From contig JAHECO010000005.1 in assembly GCA_024641705.1 (NCBI GenBank), positions 98,188 to 162,187 of the forward strand: DNA of 64,000 bases, given 5' to 3'. A program made the translations under genes and the position numbers. The DNA comes from Candidatus Kryptoniota bacterium. Lineage in GTDB: Bacteria > Bacteroidota > Ignavibacteria > Kryptoniales > JAKASW01. This document shows positions 2,892-61,174 of this stretch, in pieces; position 1 is the first letter of the stretch, and each line of letters opens with the position of its first letter. The notes under the pieces were generated by a model, which saw only the letters and a program-made list of their open reading frames with translations, was not told the DNA's origin and did no database searches.

Positions 2892-3292
2892 AATTGACCG
2901 CGAACATAGACGGAGCGTCGTTCGGCAACCCGGGCGCCAGCGGGCTGGGAGTCGTCCTTAAGGATAGCGAAGGAAAAGTCCTAGTAGAGCACTTCGAACA
3001 CCTCGGACACGGCACGAACAATCGTGCCGAGTATATGGCTTTGCTCAGAAGCATAGAACTTGCGGAAAAGCTCGGCGGTGACGAACTTGAAGTGCTGTCG
3101 GACAGTCAGCTGGTTGTTTCGCAAATGAACGGCGTCTATAAGGTCAAAAACGGCGATATAAAGGCGCTCGTTCTCAAGGTCAGGGAAAGGCTGGCGCGGT
3201 CAGGATTGAAATTCAGGATTGTCCATGTCCGCAGGGAATTCAATAAAGAGGCGGACAAACTTGCAAAGAAAGGAGCAGGGCTTGTTGTTTAG
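2888..3292 (+). CDS. ribonuclease H (RNase HI-type fold)
   Basis: The ORF track gives 2834..3292. The likely start is ATG 2888, overlapping the preceding TGA (ATGA). Translation reads MKLTANIDGASFGNPG...NNRAEYMALL...LSDSQLVV...NKEADKLA, which matches the DEDD RNase H catalytic pattern. Confidence 0.8.
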   Translation: MKLTANIDGASFGNPGASGLGVVLKDSEGKVLVEHFEHLGHGTNNRAEYMALLRSIELAEKLGGDELEVLSDSQLVVSQMNGVYKVKNGDIKALVLKVRERLARSGLKFRIVHVRREFNKEADKLAKKGAGLVV

Positions 3293-3740
3293 GAGTGAGC
3301 CAGGCAGCCGCTCCGACTTCGGTCGGGGAGGAAAGTCCGGACTCCACATGGCAGCGGGCTCCGGTGTTCGCTTCGGCGAATGTCGGAGGCGGGGCGACCC
3401 GACGGAAAGTGCCACAGAAAATATACCGCCCCGATCCAACTCGTTGGATCGGGGTAAGGGTGAAAAGGTGGGGCAAGAGCCCACCGTTCCCGGTGGTGAC
3501 ATCGGGATGCACGGTAAACCCCCCGCGGAGCAAGACCAAGTAAGGGAGAATTCCCGAACGGACTTTGTCCGCTCGGGAGCGAGGCTGCCAGTCTCGCTTT
3601 CCCGAACACGAGGTTCGGGATCCCGATCATCACACGATGTGAAAGGATCGGGAGACTCCCGGGTAGGTCGCTCAGATAAATGGCTGCCTCTTCTCCGCCT
3701 CGGCGGAGAAAAGACAGAATTCGGCTTATCGGCTCACTCC
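3292..3740 (+). ncRNA. rnpB: RNase P RNA, bacterial type A
   Basis: P1 pairs GGAGTGAGCC (3292-3301) with GGCTCACTCC (3731-3740). Universal blocks are present: GGAGGAAAGTCCGGACTCCACA (about 3325-3348), GAAAGTGCCACAGAAAATATACCGCC, AAGGGTGAAAAGGTGGGGCAAGAGCCCACC, AGATAAATGGCTGCC and ACAGAATTCGGCTTAT (3714-3729). All ORFs over this span are spurious. Confidence 0.93.
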
Positions 3741-3772
3741 GCTTCTTGTTTCGGCTTGTCGGAAAGAACCAG

Positions 3773-5521
3773 ATGAACTACAGCTGGAAACTATCGGAGC
3801 AGGCAGACGACAGGGTCACTGGTGAGTTGGCCCGGCAGCTGAACGTGAAGCCTATCATCGCGAAACTCCTGGCGCAGCGGGGCCTGGACTCGGTCGAAAA
3901 GGCAAAGACGTTCTTCTTCTCAAGCCTTAATGACCAGCACGACCCGTTTCTCATGGACGGAATGAATGCGGCCGTGGACCGCGTATTCGAGGCACTCGAA
4001 AGGTACGAGAAGATTCTCGTGTACGGTGACTACGACGTGGACGGTACCACAGGTGCGGCATTGCTCTACATGTTTTTCAGGAAGCTCGGAGCCACCGTCG
4101 AGTTCTATATTCCGGACCGGCTGAAGGAAGGGTATGGAGTAAGTACGACGGGGGTCGAGTTTGCCTCCGCGGGAGGATTCACGCTTCTCGTCACTGTCGA
4201 CTGCGGAGTCGCCGCCGGCAAGGAAATCGCTTATGCCGCCTCGAAAGGGATAGACACGATCGTCTGCGACCACCACGAGGTCGAGGATTGCCCCGATGCC
4301 GTGGCCGTGCTCGACCCGATCAAGCCGGGATGCGATTACCCCTTCAAGTACCTCTCCGGCTGCGGTGTGGCATATAAGTTTGCGAAAGCCATATCGATCA
4401 AGCTTGGAAAGAGCGAACTTCCCGACGAATATCTGGATCTGGTAGCAATCGCGGCGGCGGCGGACGTCGTGCCGCTGGTCGGGGAAAATCGGATCTTCGT
4501 CCAGGCGGGATTCAATGCAATAGCAAGTCACCCGAGGGCAGGCATCAAAGCGCTTCTCGAGAGTGCCCGGCTTGAAGTCGGAAGGCTCACCACCGGTCAG
4601 GTTTCGTTCAATATCGCCCCGCGCATCAACGCGGTGGGACGGCTTGGAGATGCCAAACGGGCCGTGGAACTACTTATCACGGACAACGCGGACGTCGCGG
4701 AGGATTTCGCGCAGGTACTCGAAAGCGAGAACTCGCACAGGAAGCTTCTCGACGAAAAGACGTTTAACGAAGCCCATGAACTCGCGCTCGAAATGTTGTC
4801 GAAGAAGAATCTGAACTCGCTCGTCCTTCACAGGGAATCGTGGCATCCGGGCGTTGTCGGGATAGTGGCTTCAAGAATAGTTGAGACTTTTTACCGTCCG
4901 ACGATCATGCTTGCGACCGTAGACGGTGTGGTGCGGGGCAGCGCGAGGAGCGTCGCCGGTTATGACATCTTCGCGGCGATCAGAGAGTGCTCGGATCTCC
5001 TGCTGCAGTTCGGTGGTCACAAGGTCGCGGCGGGAATGGCCCTTATGCCGGAGAACCTCGGGCGTTTCGCGGAGAAGTTCGAAGAGGTGGTCGCCGGTAC
5101 GATTACTGAAGACCTTAAGACTCCGGTGATATCGATCGATGCCGACCTCGACCTCGGCGATGTCAACGGCGATTTCATGAAGAAGCTGAAGCTGTTTGAA
5201 CCGTTCGGGCCGCACAATGCAAAGCCGGTGTTTCGCACGATGAATGTGTATCTTTCGGACGCGCGAATCGTGGGGAACTCCCATCTCAAAATGAAACTGA
5301 GATCGAACGGCGTCACATTCGACGCGATCAAATTCAGGAACGGCGATAGCACCGTTAAGGCCGGTACGATGCTCGATGTCGTTTATTCGGTGGATGAAAA
5401 TCACTACGCGGGTAATGTATATTATCAATTGCAGCTAAAGGATTTTAGAAACGCTTCCGAATCCTCACAATCCCGGACTTCGACGGGACCGGGCTTCGGA
5501 AAAGAAAGCTTAGGAGGTTGA
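3773..5521 (+). CDS. recJ: single-stranded-DNA-specific exonuclease RecJ
   Basis: The track ORF 3680..5521 overlaps rnpB at its 5' end, so ATG 3773 (MNYSWKL) is preferred. DHH motifs are present (YGDYDVDG, VTVDCG, ICDHH), and a DHHA1 region (GGHKVAAG). Confidence 0.9.
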   Translation: MNYSWKLSEQADDRVTGELARQLNVKPIIAKLLAQRGLDSVEKAKTFFFSSLNDQHDPFLMDGMNAAVDRVFEALERYEKILVYGDYDVDGTTGAALLYMFFRKLGATVEFYIPDRLKEGYGVSTTGVEFASAGGFTLLVTVDCGVAAGKEIAYAASKGIDTIVCDHHEVEDCPDAVAVLDPIKPGCDYPFKYLSGCGVAYKFAKAISIKLGKSELPDEYLDLVAIAAAADVVPLVGENRIFVQAGFNAIASHPRAGIKALLESARLEVGRLTTGQVSFNIAPRINAVGRLGDAKRAVELLITDNADVAEDFAQVLESENSHRKLLDEKTFNEAHELALEMLSKKNLNSLVLHRESWHPGVVGIVASRIVETFYRPTIMLATVDGVVRGSARSVAGYDIFAAIRECSDLLLQFGGHKVAAGMALMPENLGRFAEKFEEVVAGTITEDLKTPVISIDADLDLGDVNGDFMKKLKLFEPFGPHNAKPVFRTMNVYLSDARIVGNSHLKMKLRSNGVTFDAIKFRNGDSTVKAGTMLDVVYSVDENHYAGNVYYQLQLKDFRNASESSQSRTSTGPGFGKESLGG

Positions 5522-56110: not shown

Positions 56111-58753
56111 ATGAACTTGAATAAACTGACAATCAAATCACAGGAAGCGCTTGAAACCGCGCAGGCGATCGCGGGCGAAAACTCTCAACAGGCGATCGAA
56201 CCCGAGCACCTTCTGATTGCACTTCTTAAGGACGACGAGGGCATCCCCTCGCTGGTACTCAAGAAGGCGGGCGCCAACATCGAGTATATCCGCGCCAAGA
56301 GCGAAGAGGCCGTTCAGAAATTTCCAAAGGTCAGCGGCGGAGGAATCGCTAATCACTATCTCTCGCAGCCGCTGGCAAAAGCGCTTGATTCGGCCGAAAA
56401 AGAAGCCTCGCAGATGAAGGATGAGTATGTGAGCACGGAGCATCTGCTTCTCGGCCTGCTCGGCGATCGCAGTATAGACGCGTACAAGATCCTGAGCTCG
56501 CAGGGGGTCAACCGCGAGATTGTGTTAAAGGCATTGCACGAGATCAGGGGTACACAGCGGGTGATCGATCAGAACCCGGAAGAGAAATACCGGTCTCTCC
56601 AGAAATTCGGAAGGGATCTGACCGACCTCGCAAGGAAAGGCAAGCTCGATCCGGTCATAGGGCGCGACGACGAGATCAGGCGCGTGTTGCAGGTGCTTGC
56701 GAGGCGAACCAAGAACAATCCGGTTCTCATAGGCGACCCGGGTGTCGGAAAGACCGCTGTCGTCGAGGGAATTGCCAGACGCATCGCAAGCGGCGATGTC
56801 CCGGATGGGCTGAAGTCCAAGAGAATAGTCGAGTTGGACATGGGCAGCCTCGTGGCCGGCACATCCTATCGGGGACAATTCGAGGACAGGCTAAAGTCGA
56901 TCATCAAGGAGGTCGTCGAGTCCGAAGGAGAGATAATCCTTTTCATGGATGAACTCCATACTCTCGTAGGTGCAGGAGCTGCACAGGGTTCCGTGGACGC
57001 ATCGAACATGTTGAAGCCGGCACTTGCCCGCGGCGAACTCCGGGCCATCGGGGCCACGACTATCAAAGAGTACAGAAACCACATTGAAAAAGATCCTGCA
57101 CTTGAGAGAAGGTTCCAGCCGATCATGATAGATGAGCCATCCGTCGAGGACACGATCTCCATACTTCGCGGACTGAAAGAACGGTATGAAATCCACCATG
57201 GCGTCAGGATAACCGACGGGGCGATTGTTGCTGCGGCACAGCTCAGCAACCGGTATATCACAGACCGCTTCATGCCCGACAAAGCGATCGACCTCATCGA
57301 CGAAGCGGCATCGAAGCTCCGTATCGAGATGGACTCGCTGCCTGAAGCCCTTGACGAGGTCGAGAGGAAAACGAAACAGCTGGAAATTGAAAGAGAAGCT
57401 ATCAGGAGAGAGAAGGACGAAGAGTCGAAGAAGCGGCTCGGCATAATCGAGCATGAGCTCGCAGATCTTCGCGAACAGGGCGCCCAGCTTAAGGCTCACT
57501 GGCAGATCGAGAAGGATCTTATACAGACCATCCAGAAGTCGAAAGAAGATATTGAACGCCTCAAGCTCGAGGCCGACAAGGCGGAGCGTGCGGGGGATCT
57601 GGGGAAGGTCGCTGAAATCCGTTACGGGAATATTACGGCGGTTGAAAAAAGACTCAAGGAGTCGACGCAGCGACTTGCCGAAGCGCAGAAGAACAGCAAG
57701 ATGCTGAAAGAAGAAGTGGAAGCAGAGGACATTGCAGAAATAGTCTCGAGGTGGACAGGAGTACCCGTTTCAAGAATGCTCGAGAGCGAGCGAAGCAAGC
57801 TCCTCCACCTGGAAGAGAAAATACACGCTCGTATGGTCGACCAGGAAGAGGCCGTCTCCGCGGTCGCTAATGCCGTGCGGCGTGCAAGGGCCGGACTGCA
57901 GGATGAAAAACGCCCGATAGGATCGTTCATATTCATCGGCTCGACCGGAGTCGGCAAGACCGAACTGGCACGGGCGCTGGCGGAAGCTCTCTTCGACGAT
58001 GAAGACGCCATGGTACGCATCGACATGTCGGAGTACACCGAGAAGTTTTCCGTTTCCAGGCTTACCGGAGCACCTCCCGGATACGTCGGATACGAGGAGG
58101 GAGGCCAGCTTACCGAGGCAGTGAGGAGGAAACCTTATTCAGTGGTGCTCCTGGATGAAATTGAAAAGGCTCATCCGGAGATATTCAACGTCCTTCTCCA
58201 AGTACTCGACGACGGCCGGCTCACGGACAGCAAGGGGAGGACGGTCAATTTCAAGAACACAATCATCATCATGACCTCCAACCTCGGTTCGCAGCTCGTG
58301 CAGCAGAAAATAGAGACGACCAAGGAGCGCGAGAGGGCGGAAATGATGGAGAACCTGAAGAGCGAACTGTTTTCTCTCCTCAGACAGACAATCAAGCCGG
58401 AATTCTTGAACAGGCTCGATGAGATTATCGTGTTCAAACCGCTTACTCGCAACGAGATCAGAAGCATCGTCGATCTTCAGTTGGCCAGGATCATCTCGAG
58501 ACTGAAAGAGAACAACAGCCTCACGCTTGAAGTAACCGAACGGGCGAAACTGTTCCTTGCCGACGCGGGCTACGACCCGCTCTACGGCGCGAGGCCGCTC
58601 AAACGCACCATCCAGAAGTACATATCGAACCCGCTGGCCGAGAAGGTCCTGGCAGGCAACTTCGGGCCGGGGGAGACCGTTGAAGTAGACATTCGCGAAT
58701 CGGGGAAGATAGAGTTCACCAAAGTCAAGGAACAAGCGGAGCCGGTGAGCTAA
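56111..58753 (+). CDS. clpB: ATP-dependent disaggregase ClpB
   Basis: 880 aa. It has a Clp_N repeat, two AAA+ modules (GDPGVGKT and [11 protein letters not shown]) and the long middle coiled-coil. Confidence 0.98.
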
Positions 58754-58798
58754 ACACGCAGTCGATCTTGCAACATTAACATCTCATTATCTCTTTTG

Positions 58799-58835
58799 AG
58801 TCCGCCCGGTCGAAAACGGGCGGACTTGCTTTTGG
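58799..58835 (+). terminator. rho-independent terminator of clpB
   Basis: A 10-bp stem AGTCCGCCCG / CGGGCGGACT (58799-58808 / 58817-58826) with an 8-nt loop is followed by TGCTTTTGG. Confidence 0.7.
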
Positions 58836-59179
58836 AGCGTGCGAAAAGTTTCTACAGTTTTCCTGTTGCATTGACCGATCTCTTTACATTACATTTCATC
58901 GACGTAGATAGAAGTCAGGTGAAGAGGTAGCAGATCGTCCGCGAGCTGGGTAGCAGCCGCGGAGTACCAGGTAATTCCAAACCATACATAACATAACCAA
59001 GACTAGCGTAAGTCTGTCGAGTAGTTAAGACCGGCTGGATCAGTTGATGGCTCATGCCGGACTGCGCAATTGCGCTGGCCGCATTTTGGCACTTGGCCGC
59101 CGAAGTGGCCGTCCAAGTGTGAAAATTGGCCATTCTTGCGCTGTGCGGAGGGATTTCATTGCTGGCGGGAGAAAAGTCG

Positions 59180-59452
59180 ATGGCGATAATAGTCAGGTCC
59201 ATGCGGAGAGATCGGGGCTCGATTCAAAAAGGTGGCGGGTGAACGAGTAGAGAATGGATTTCAACGTGAATAGTTGACAAGTGAATGCGGAGAGATGCTG
59301 ACTCGATGCGGAAAGATCGATAGTCCATGCAGAAAGATGACGGCGCTCCTTGGAAGGAAGCTGGCTCAATGGATAAAGAAGAGATCTTGATGTCAGAAGA
59401 TAACCTGTTGATTCGAAAAGATAGGATATCGATGTCGTAAGTTGCGACACGG
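59180..59452. repeat. degenerate tandem array with strict 21-nt phasing (box ATGCGGAAAGAT)
   Basis: Box ATGs fall at 59180, 59201, 59285, 59306, 59327, 59369, 59390 and 59432, so every spacing is a multiple of 21. The best boxes are ATGCGGAGAGAT (59201 and 59285), ATGCGGAAAGAT (59306) and ATGCAGAAAGAT (59327). Weaker in-register copies lie at 59222, 59369, 59390 and 59411. Confidence 0.75.
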
Positions 59453-59568
59453 ACGAAGAGAGTTAACCCATGAAAGTCGAAAGTTGCATGTTGACTGCTC
59501 ACCTTGACCGCGAAGAGCTTTCAATGGTCCTCTTGCGAGCGACGCAGCGCCGCACCCATGCCTTTACC

Positions 59569-59860
59569 GTCATTGCGAGGAGCTTGGGAGTACATCCGAT
59601 GCGCGAGGAAGCAATCTGCTACCCATGGTGAGTGGTGGTGAAGGGAAGGGGATTGCTTCGAGGTTGTCCCAAAACAAGGAAAATGTCATTCTGAAGGAGC
59701 GGAGCGACTGAAGAATCCACTTATTCGTTCTGAAAAATGGATGCTTCACTTCGTTCAGCATGACAGACAAGACTTTCTGGACAGCCTCTCGCAATGACGG
59801 GTGGAGGAGGGGATTGCTTCGCCCGTCCGTCCAATGTCGGGACGGACTCGCAATGACGGA
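59569..59860 (+). repeat. composite hairpin-repeat block, left copy (outer stem GTCATTGCGA/TCGCAATGAC, inner stem GAAGCAATC/GATTGCTTC, nested variant element, GTCCGTCC/GGACGGAC hairpin)
   Basis: Four modules recur downstream of the GIY-YIG ORF. The 51-nt module 59569-59619 matches 60188-60238 with 3 mismatches. The 15-nt module 59648-59662 equals 60259-60273. The 29-nt module 59789-59817 equals 60290-60318. The 20-nt module 59832-59851 equals 60377-60396. Confidence 0.85.
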
Positions 59861-59880
59861 TTTATGATGGTGCTGAAGAA

Positions 59881-60168
59881 ATGGATAAGACCTTTTGCGT
59901 TTATATCATGACAAACAAATACAACACGGTGCTGTATACCGGGGTAACGAGCGATCTGGCAAGAAGAGTGAGGCAGCACAAGGAAGGAGTTTACCCTGGA
60001 TTTACGAAGAAATACAACGTCACGAAGCTGGTCTACTACGAGGTATGTGATGGCGCTAATGAGGCAATACGACGGGAGAAGCTGATCAAGGGAGGCTCAA
60101 GGAAGAAGAAAGAGGCATTGATCAACAGTGTTAACAGCGAGTGGAGGGATCTGAGTGAAGACATCTGA
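59881..60168 (+). CDS. GIY-YIG nuclease family protein (small stand-alone URI-domain type, COG2827-like)
   Basis: 95 aa. FCVYIMTNKYNTVLYTGVTSDLARRVRQH gives the GIY...YIG motif pair and conserved Arg. YYE...REK follows. Confidence 0.85.
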   Translation: MDKTFCVYIMTNKYNTVLYTGVTSDLARRVRQHKEGVYPGFTKKYNVTKLVYYEVCDGANEAIRREKLIKGGSRKKKEALINSVNSEWRDLSEDI

Positions 60169-60187
60169 TGCACACCGTACCCACAAC

Positions 60188-60405
60188 GTCATTGCGAGGA
60201 GCCTGGGAGCACATCCGATGCGCGACGAAGCAATCTGCTGCGGCGGTGGTTGCGTGAAGGGGATTGCTTCGAGCCGCTGCCGCGGCTCTTCGCAATGACG
60301 GGTGGAGGAGGGGATTGCCCGTCAAAGCCGGATCTCATCCTCCCTAGCCGGGCGGACTCAACTTCGTCCGTCCCTCCAATGTCGGGACGGACTCGCGATG
60401 ACGAG
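60188..60405 (+). repeat. composite hairpin-repeat block, right copy
   Basis: This is a direct repeat of the modules listed for 59569-59860. The double-stem element spans 60188-60299 (112 nt) without the nested insert. An extra ~48 nt lies between the GGGGATTGC module and the GTCCGTCC hairpin. Confidence 0.85.
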
Positions 60406-60418
60406 TTGATTGGCACGC

Positions 60419-60525
60419 GTCCGCCTGCGCCAGGGGCTTCGGCGGACTTTGTGGTCAATTACAGAGCGTCAGTTTCTTTGCATTTCAGTCCGCCTGCGCC
60501 AAAGGCTTCGGCGGACATTGTGGTT
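60419..60525 (+). repeat. two direct copies of a 38-nt hairpin repeat (GTCCGCC-15 nt-GGGCGAC-type stem GTCCGCC/GGCGGAC)
   Basis: Copy one is 60419-60456, GTCCGCCTGCGCCAGGGGCTTCGGCGGACTTTGTGGTC. Copy two is 60488-60525, GTCCGCCTGCGCCAAAGGCTTCGGCGGACATTGTGGTT. Each forms a 7-bp stem. Confidence 0.8.
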
Positions 60526-60586
60526 TCTTGAGGGTCAATGGTTTTATTGCATTTCTGCAAAAATTTCGGCATTTTGAATTAAAAAA

Positions 60587-61174
60587 GTGAAAAGAAAATC
60601 CTCCCTCAACCGCGTAACTCGGGAAACCCAGATTGCGTGTGACGTCAATCTGGATGGAATCGGGAAATACCAGGTTTCGACCGGTATAAAATTCTTCAAC
60701 CACATGCTGGAACTCTTTTCTAAACATAGCCTTATCGACCTGACTCTGAAGGCAAGAGGCGATGTGGAAGTCGATGACCACCATACGGTCGAAGATGTCG
60801 CGATTGTGATAGGAAAATGTGTCGACAAGGCGCTCGGAGACAAGGACGGAATAAACCGCTATGGCAATGCTTACGTGCCGATGGATGAGTCGCTCGCGCG
60901 GTGCGTGATAGATCTGTCGGGAAGAGGACACTGCGTGTTCCACGCGGATTTTTCCCGGCCTAAAGTAAGTGACCTTTCGACCGAAATGATCGAACACTTC
61001 TTCAAATCCATGGCGGAGAATCTTAAGGCGAATATTCATGTTGAGTTACTTTACGGGAAGAATAACCACCACCGCTCGGAGGCAATCTTCAAGGCGTTCG
61101 CCCTCGCCCTCCGGGAAGCGGTCTCTCTGAATCCCCGTATTGTCGGAGTGCAGTCGACGAAAGGGAAGTTGTAG
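60587..61174 (+). CDS. hisB: imidazoleglycerol-phosphate dehydratase
   Basis: 195 aa with a GTG start. RETQIACDVNLDG, FFNHMLELFSKHS, DDHHTVEDVAI and HHRSEAIFKAFALALREA are the IGPD metal-binding motifs. Confidence 0.93.
   Translation: MKRKSSLNRVTRETQIACDVNLDGIGKYQVSTGIKFFNHMLELFSKHSLIDLTLKARGDVEVDDHHTVEDVAIVIGKCVDKALGDKDGINRYGNAYVPMDESLARCVIDLSGRGHCVFHADFSRPKVSDLSTEMIEHFFKSMAENLKANIHVELLYGKNNHHRSEAIFKAFALALREAVSLNPRIVGVQSTKGKL

Follow-up and report, generated by a model that had tools for sequence, protein, structure and literature searches.

The iterons of theta-type plasmid and phage origins include the seven 22-bp repeats of R6K, the 17-mers of RK2 placed on a 22-bp pitch, the 19-mers of P1 and F, and those of the lambda ori. 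Partition centromeres also consist of repeated sites, with ten repeats of 11 bp in R1 parC, four of 20 bp in pSK41 and twelve of 43 bp in F sopC. Tandem repeats of the mycobacterial interspersed repetitive unit/variable-number tandem repeat (MIRU/VNTR) type are intergenic minisatellites. Here, we describe a phase-locked row of 21-nt repeats (the array) in the spacer between clpB and hisB of a Candidatus Kryptoniota bacterium. The analyzed stretch of 64,000 nt (contig JAHECO010000005.1 of assembly GCA_024641705.1, positions 98,188 to 162,187 of the forward strand) is called the window, and all coordinates refer to it. Like iterons, the array is made of tandem direct repeats within the 17-22 bp range and in helical phase, which share one orientation and a pitch of about two turns and contain two conserved patches about one turn apart, split by variable positions. 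Like partition centromeres, it offers many phased direct repeats, in a comparable number, suiting a protein-DNA filament.

The array comprises 16 consecutive 21-nt slots at 59159-59494 of the plus strand, in exact register and in one orientation. Identity at lags of 21, 42 and 63 nt over 59158-59505 was 0.483, 0.477 and 0.425 (z = 9.1, 8.2 and 6.4), against a 99th percentile of 0.362 for the best lag in 500 dinucleotide shuffles, and every other lag stayed at z ≤ 2. This confirmed the lag-21 peak anticipated in a preliminary description of this DNA, whose boxes were all found again in a single register of 59180 + 21n. That description let the register end at about 59452, but it continues to about 59494, giving 16 slots from about 59159. 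About ten boxes can be recognized, and the slots at 59222-59284 are degenerate. Only four boxes lie within one mismatch of the 12-mer ATGCGGAAAGAT; with up to two mismatches, this 12-mer occurs at nine sites in the 64 kb (7.1 expected by chance), five of which are in the array and all five in register. Tandem Repeats Finder did not report the array. Two variants of the locus were recovered from wastewater runs X3/X4 and X5, and the array is retained in three strain variants. The array and its parts, including one open reading frame (ORF), are the following.

59159-59494, plus strand: the array, 16 slots of 21 nt, 64% purine on this strand.
59222-59284, plus strand: three degenerate slots with neutral-like strain divergence and a 1-nt deletion in X3 and X4.
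59285-59452, plus strand: the eight best-kept slots with ATG-N3-ARAGAT boxes, containing a 37-codon ORF at 59327-59440 (51 codons in X3).
59495-59566, no strand assigned: unique tail separating the array from the hairpin repeats, with two strain changes in 66 nt.

The unit has the consensus ATGCGGAAAGATGACAGGTCG and eight conserved columns, namely T18, ATG (columns 0-2), A6, A8, G9 and T11. Pairwise identity per column is 0.76 for A0, 0.68 for G2, 0.66 for A6, 0.77 for A8, 0.88 for G9 and 0.76 for T18, with T1 and T11 intermediate at about 0.5, and falls to a background of 0.23-0.43 at columns 3-5, 7, 10, 12-17 and 19-20. Such unevenness between columns was reached in none of 5000 simulations of uniform divergence, in which the number of mismatches per unit was kept and the columns were randomized. 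The motif A[AG]AGAT occurs six times in the array compared to 0.5 expected. Each unit is thus a box in two parts, T..ATG-N3-A.AG.T, with a free spacer of 6 nt after it, and its two conserved patches lie about 9 and 12 nt apart, which is roughly one helical turn. The four best boxes are identical at 10 or more of 12 positions while their spacers are nearly random, implying selection on the boxes. The spacer columns are saturated and no indel breaks the register here, whereas among strains indels occur at a rate of about one per 16 substitutions; this suggests that the spacing has been under selection as well.

Divergence of the X3 variant from the window was determined segment by segment, with third codon positions of clpB and the spacer after clpB (12-13.5%) as neutral proxies.

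clpB third codon positions: 13.5%.
58754-58858, spacer after clpB: 12.4%.
58859-58897, promoter-like element: no change in 39 nt.
58898-59032: 6.7%.
59033-59158, hairpin: 1.6%.
59159-59221, slots 1-3: 6.3%.
59222-59284, degenerate slots: 14.3%.
59285-59494, slots 7-16: 2.9%.
59495-59560, tail: 3.0%.

Compared with the neutral proxies, the block 58859-59560 shows a divergence that is lower by about threefold (p = 5e-5). It begins at a sharp boundary (58858/58859), where 39 unchanged nucleotides follow 32 nt with 11 changes (p = 5e-5). Within the block, the degenerate slots carry nine changes in 63 nt compared to eight in the 276 nt of 59285-59560 (p = 0.001), and only two of the nine strain changes in the eight best slots fall on box columns (p = 0.04). 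Five nucleotides at 58986 are absent from X3, X4 and X5, and the 1-nt deletion shared by X3 and X4 is at 59234, inside the array. This pattern fits purifying selection on the boxes, which it can only support, since the sharp boundary and the clustering of changes would also follow from recent spread of the block or from recombination patches.

The spacer between clpB and hisB spans 1833 nt in the window. Its counterpart was compared in seven related species (L001, L003, L006, L007, L066, L207 and L208). The spacer between clpB and hisB-proC is 198-443 nt long in the first five, and the two HisB relatives with 89-91% identity have 572 nt (L207) and at least 805 nt (L208); none of these spacers contains the array, and it was likewise not found among the HisB relatives L207-L209. 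By its ClpB, the window belongs to Candidatus Kryptoniota; the best genome loci (85-88% identical) carry the label of Kryptoniota or 'Bacteroidetes' metagenome-assembled genomes. In comparison with the spacers of the first five, sequence of the window recurs only as the hisB promoter region (60544-60598), with the clpB terminator as a further match in L002. Since the spacer is long here and short and array-free in relatives, the array belongs to a lineage-specific insertion of about 1.7 kb. The preliminary description had placed the array in a gene-free gap downstream of clpB; what it called a gap is this insertion, which carries a gene for a GIY-YIG nuclease. The insertion contains, in this order, a promoter-like element, a long hairpin, the array, repeats resembling repetitive extragenic palindromes (REP-like hairpins), the GIY-YIG gene, further hairpins and a 69-nt duplication next to the hisB promoter. 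The insertion and its elements outside the array are as follows.

58859-60540, no strand assigned: lineage-specific insertion in the clpB-hisB spacer, about 1.7 kb, including the promoter-like element, hairpins, array and GIY-YIG gene.
58866-58898, plus strand: promoter-like element TTGCATT-N17-18-TACATTTC, directed into the array and invariant between strains.
58975-59000, no strand assigned: AT-rich CATAA micro-repeat whose length varies by 5 nt among strains.
59062-59148, plus strand: long imperfect hairpin or palindrome directly upstream of the array, with a strain divergence of 1.6%.
59567-59870, no strand assigned: REP-like hairpin repeats GTCATTGCGAGGAGC... / ...CTCGCAATGAC.
59881-60168, plus strand: gene for a small GIY-YIG nuclease of 95 aa (PF01541, E = 1e-17).
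60187-60410, no strand assigned: second REP-like hairpin block.
60419-60555, plus strand: 69-nt tandem duplication of 'GC hairpin + TTGCATTTC' beside the hisB promoter (repeat families D6 and D11).

In its own metagenome the array is single-copy at 85% identity or above. A weight-matrix scan for phased boxes across the window and 17 related loci revealed nothing beyond it, scans of viral contigs for the box skeleton retrieved only unrelated perfect 21-nt tandem repeats, and a metagenome scan with the ClpB C-terminus gave only relatives of about 60% among the matches listed. Literature searches on repeat arrays and on Kryptonia turned up no such arrays. The genes within 5 kb are dnaK, clpB, the GIY-YIG gene, hisB, proC, hisH and hisA. 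Several assignments to known classes of element were rejected. An origin of replication is contradicted by the lack of a skew switch and of DnaA boxes and by the absence of the array from syntenic relatives; a his-operon leader by the intervening GIY-YIG gene and hairpins and by the fact that hisB retains its own promoter; and a CRISPR locus (short palindromic repeats that are clustered and regularly interspaced) by a 21-nt pitch that is too short for repeat plus spacer.

Of the three interpretations in the preliminary description, a DNA-level binding array fits best. We tentatively regard the array as an orphan iteron- or centromere-like row of phased protein-binding boxes on DNA, a possibility to which we give somewhat less than an even chance. 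A single orientation, a two-turn pitch, patches one turn apart and a free spacer make cooperative DNA binding the best reading. The array would have been shaped at the nucleic-acid level as phased recognition boxes repeating every two helical turns, and in the most probable mechanism one sequence-specific protein would bind cooperatively along one face of the DNA. Each 21-bp unit carries two patches (T18..ATG and A6.AG.T11) about one turn apart, and then a free 6-bp spacer. The array probably arrived on the block of about 0.7 kb at 58859-59566 of the 1.7-kb insertion. Because relatives with 85-91% protein identity are devoid of the array, its selective history probably lies elsewhere and the block was probably imported; the gene for the binding protein would be sited elsewhere in the genome or may have stayed behind in a donor.

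The analogy is one of presumed function, not of membership, since the array has no cognate gene and no origin context and its units are degenerate; hence it may work like iterons or centromeres, and is not classified as either. In contrast to iterons, it has 16 slots instead of 3-8 and units only about 48% alike, a search of the ORFs within 5 kb found no initiator (Rep) gene, AT-rich sequence is limited to the 26 nt at 58975-59000, and the array lies in a chromosomal spacer between housekeeping genes. In contrast to partition centromeres, it has no parA/parM or centromere-binding gene within 5 kb, its repeats are degenerate and it is not on a plasmid.

Several observations weigh against this interpretation. 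No rep, par or other DNA-binding gene was found within 5 kb, leaving no candidate binder there; the cumulative GC skew rises steadily across the window without a switch, and no DnaA box TTATCCACA with up to one mismatch was detected at 52.9-64 kb. Besides being single-copy, the array is without relatives in the plasmid, phage and viral collections, with no blastn match among 72,556 plasmids and 50,697 phages. A mean unit identity of about 0.48 makes it far more degenerate than working iterons. The purine excess of the plus strand (64% compared to 42-60% in the flanks) extends to unconstrained columns (134/208, p = 4e-5), which recognition of a duplex does not predict, while the conserved promoter-like element and strain changes compatible with G.U pairing in the upstream hairpin hint at a plus-strand RNA. 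The low strain divergence could reflect recent spread or recombination instead of selection, and the clusters of single-nucleotide polymorphisms at 58827-58858 and 59232-59283 resemble imported patches. Finally, a second 21-nt array described below shares no detectable sequence or heptad-profile similarity with this one.

An unlikely alternative is a plus-strand non-coding RNA of about 0.65 kb that starts at around 58900 with a 5' hairpin and continues into unstructured purine-rich AUG-N3-ARAGAU boxes, which would offer a single-strand RNA-binding protein a multivalent scaffold or sponge. It would account for the location of all boxes on one strand and for the purine richness that includes the unconstrained columns, and on either strand the array folds less well than its shuffles (z = +0.5 and +1.0). 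Structure is present in the 5' region, where 58895-59165 has a folding energy of -101 kcal/mol (z = -3.0), and the two strain changes of the hairpin stem (59090 C>T and 59123 A>G) stay paired as G.U on the plus strand only, which two changes would do by luck once in four cases. The promoter-like element noted in the preliminary description is present, invariant between strains (0/39 nt) and similar to the hisB promoter of this genome (TTGCATTT...CATTTTG, 60546-60575); it does not qualify as a sigma-70 promoter, and it resembles promoters of the Fibrobacteres-Chlorobi-Bacteroidetes (FCB) or Bacteroidota-group type with -33/-7 boxes. The array shares with the CsrB/RsmZ sponge RNAs its length of about 340 nt, purine richness, weak folding and numerous short motifs on one strand. 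In contrast to them, its GGA triplets are neither enriched (10 compared to 10.9 +/- 2.7 expected from composition) nor part of the conserved columns, its motifs lie outside hairpin loops, and a strict 21-nt spacing is not expected of known sponge RNAs. An Rfam search of 58700-60600 produced nothing at the gathering score or at E values up to 10 except chance-level hairpin matches, and the CsrB/Rsm-type sponge suggested in the preliminary description is not supported. No terminator-like site was found for the putative RNA, and the array had zero coverage in three small metatranscriptomes of the same sample, which also miss the clpB of this organism. It is less probable that the array is a functionless minisatellite, produced by slippage in a repeat-prone spacer and hitch-hiking with the GIY-YIG/REP-like island. 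As in MIRU/VNTR loci, tandem units of tens of bases lie in a spacer downstream of a gene and show small length differences between strains, and the array is lineage-specific, single-copy and without homologues, in a spacer that gathers repeats in relatives too. Moreover, the decay of its central slots matches the neutral rate, and the 1-nt deletion has cost one strain the register. However, neutral decay predicts equal divergence of all columns, which the simulations reject, and indels once the spacers are saturated, of which none breaks the register here. In contrast to minisatellites, the units are old and diverged and still keep an exact register and conserved boxes, with no copies at other loci. 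Absence from species with 85-91% identity, together with units about 50% diverged, argues that the array has not recently arisen in place.

A further alternative, the decayed heptad-repeat gene proposed in the preliminary description, is doubtful in our view. It would be a stop-broken relic with M-x-K/R-D/E-x-x-S heptads on the ATG frame and a short hydrophobic start at 59126, in which an ORF of 37-51 codons may still be used. Several features are consistent with it: 21 nt equal seven codons, columns 3-5 and 12-17 form variable blocks in codon alignment with the ATG, A or G at column 7 encodes K or R, and the third base of TCN is free. The ORF is an intact 51 codons in X3, where TAG is changed to TGG at 59322, and the sets of stops vary among strains. 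The 37-codon ORF reaches a codon-usage score of 0.12, an ambiguous value that corresponds to the 16th percentile among genes and that just 7% of open off-frame segments match. Nevertheless, the array is non-coding. All three plus frames contain stops (the ATG frame includes the TGA, TAG and TAA noted earlier), and the eight stops of frame 1 compare to about seven estimated from composition, revealing no stop avoidance. Two minus frames are open over the array, as expected because that strand is pyrimidine-rich, and both are broken by the 1-nt and 5-nt strain indels. The period-3 index is -0.022, lower than in any of the 35 gene segments taken from the window (+0.037 +/- 0.016), GC content is flat over the codon phases (0.43/0.47/0.50 compared to 0.61/0.36/0.68 in clpB), and the six frames score -0.35 to -0.67 in codon usage compared to +0.24 +/- 0.09 for genes. 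Strain changes are spread over the phases as 7/6/9, whereas in clpB 15 of 20 fall at third positions. The 'K' codon of the ATG frame is AAA (about 6:1) and the 'D' codon GAT (7:0), against host preferences for AAG (121:60) and GAC (87:57); hence, columns 8 and 11 are fixed as bases, not as amino acids. No homologue of the 37-aa plus-strand product was found among 1.84 billion proteins, nor one of the heptad gene in a set of 5.8 billion; a protein search with the 92-aa minus-strand ORF over the array gave no match, and no Pfam or NCBIfam family was recognized in the array ORFs and their read-throughs. These stops, the missing period-3 signal and phase bias, and the lack of protein homologues agree with the earlier statement that no convincing coding sequence covers the array.

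A parallel array next to a GIY-YIG homologue also counts in favour of the DNA-binding interpretation. The GIY-YIG protein has 4495 homologues, mostly on very short contigs, and about ten independent loci were inspected for arrays. One of them (L222:1060-1540) contains a second phase-locked 21-nt array with about 23 units, which has a GIY-YIG homologue about 0.5 kb downstream and REP-like hairpins in between. This locus is nearly identical in L223 and L224 (three metagenomes, unrelated organism), and its GIY-YIG protein is 73% identical to that of the window. The two arrays share the 21-nt phase lock, two patches per unit, the lack of a period-3 signal and a position upstream of GIY-YIG behind REP-like hairpins. 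In contrast to the array of the window, the L222 array has a different, palindromic box (GTGTCAC-N4-CATCCGGACG, with patches 10.5 bp apart and the sub-motifs TCCGGA and GTGnCAC), a 42-nt super-period, no purine skew (counted on the consensus unit) and better folding than shuffles (z = -3.3 and -3.8). Homology of the two arrays was rejected, as neither the best of 42 profile rotations (z = 2.7) nor the best of 252 heptad-profile comparisons (z about 3) was significant. Descent of the L222 array from its REP-like hairpins was also rejected, with an alignment at chance level. A minus frame of the L222 array, interrupted by just two stops, is nearly open over 290 codons and leads into a hydrophobic tail; in gene calls it appears as two ORFs, neither with a known family.

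In five further groups of GIY-YIG homologues no comparable array was found, and lag-21 signals at 19 viral GIY-YIG loci were located only inside coiled-coil genes. Control loci totalling 1.29 Mb gave lag-21 signals solely in the clpB coiled coil. In GC-rich genomes (L047, L050, L068 and others), the coiled-coil middle domain of clpB, about 1.15-1.35 kb into the gene, has a lag-21 identity of 0.48-0.52. As this equals the value of the array, lag-21 scans alone also catch coding heptads; unlike the array, the clpB coiled coil has raised values at lags 18 and 24 too. The association of arrays with GIY-YIG genes, based on one independent case in about 80 kb compared to none in 1.29 Mb (roughly p = 0.05), is suggestive and not established. 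It is a remote prospect that phase-locked 21-nt arrays are a recurring companion of small GIY-YIG and REP-like hairpin islands across phyla, for example as a protein-binding platform or landing pad. Other repeats were also observed near GIY-YIG genes. At L236:2190-2280, the position corresponding to that of the array is taken by four 22-nt repeats, AT-rich and near-palindromic (AAAACATTTCGAAGTTTTTGGA), with the terminator of an HU-HIG gene on one side and REP-like hairpins and a GIY-YIG gene on the other, and REP-like half-elements, CCCGTCTTTGCGAGGAGCACAGCGACGAAGCAATCTCCTCTGG, form 43-nt tandem arrays on either side of a GIY-YIG gene (L216:2770-2930 and 3330-3900).

REP-like hairpins occur within the 64 kb solely in the two blocks flanking the GIY-YIG gene. 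The preliminary description saw by eye a kinship between the array and the hairpins downstream of it, but the best local alignment scores 20, compared to a shuffle mean of 20.3 and 20.8 for real-sequence controls; this is chance level, and descent of the array from these hairpins was rejected. In run X1, contig depth at the REP-like hairpin GTCATTCTGAAGGAGCGGAGCGACTGAAGAATCC (59653-59826) amounts to 2400-3400x compared to about 12x in its flanks, so this hairpin family is hugely multi-copy across the community, and assemblies break at this hairpin. The long hairpin upstream of the array contains a 12-nt mini-repeat, TGGCCGCCCAAG, in 2.2 copies (59094-59119), and four TGGCC motifs at 59075, 59093, 59105 and 59126.

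Directly upstream of hisB, a module composed of TTGCATTTC (resembling the -33 box of the hisB promoter) and a GC hairpin (GTCCGCC...GGCGGAC) is multiplied in tandem. It is present in two copies in the window (60419-60555), three in L207 (4700-4990) and about six in L208 (1190-1890), and tandem units of this kind fill the spacers of the latter two. The module may represent promoter duplication by a hairpin element. A more divergent wastewater relative in run X3, with about 84% identity in clpB, lacks 1702 nt on its contig, from 58718 to 60421, so that the end of clpB leads almost directly to the hisB promoter region, corresponding to the insertion-free state. Elsewhere in the window, the sole Rfam match at the gathering score is an RNase P RNA of bacterial class A on the plus strand at 3292-3744 (250 bits, E = 3e-80).

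If neither protein binding nor the link to GIY-YIG islands holds, the array would be a decaying imported repeat of no wider consequence. If the boxes work, they would represent a chromosomal orphan iteron- or centromere-like array in the barely studied phylum Candidatus Kryptoniota. Should the recurrence next to GIY-YIG genes be real, phase-locked 21-nt arrays would be an undescribed module of GIY-YIG/REP-like islands, and thus a new component of widespread and poorly understood small elements that are selfish or domesticated.

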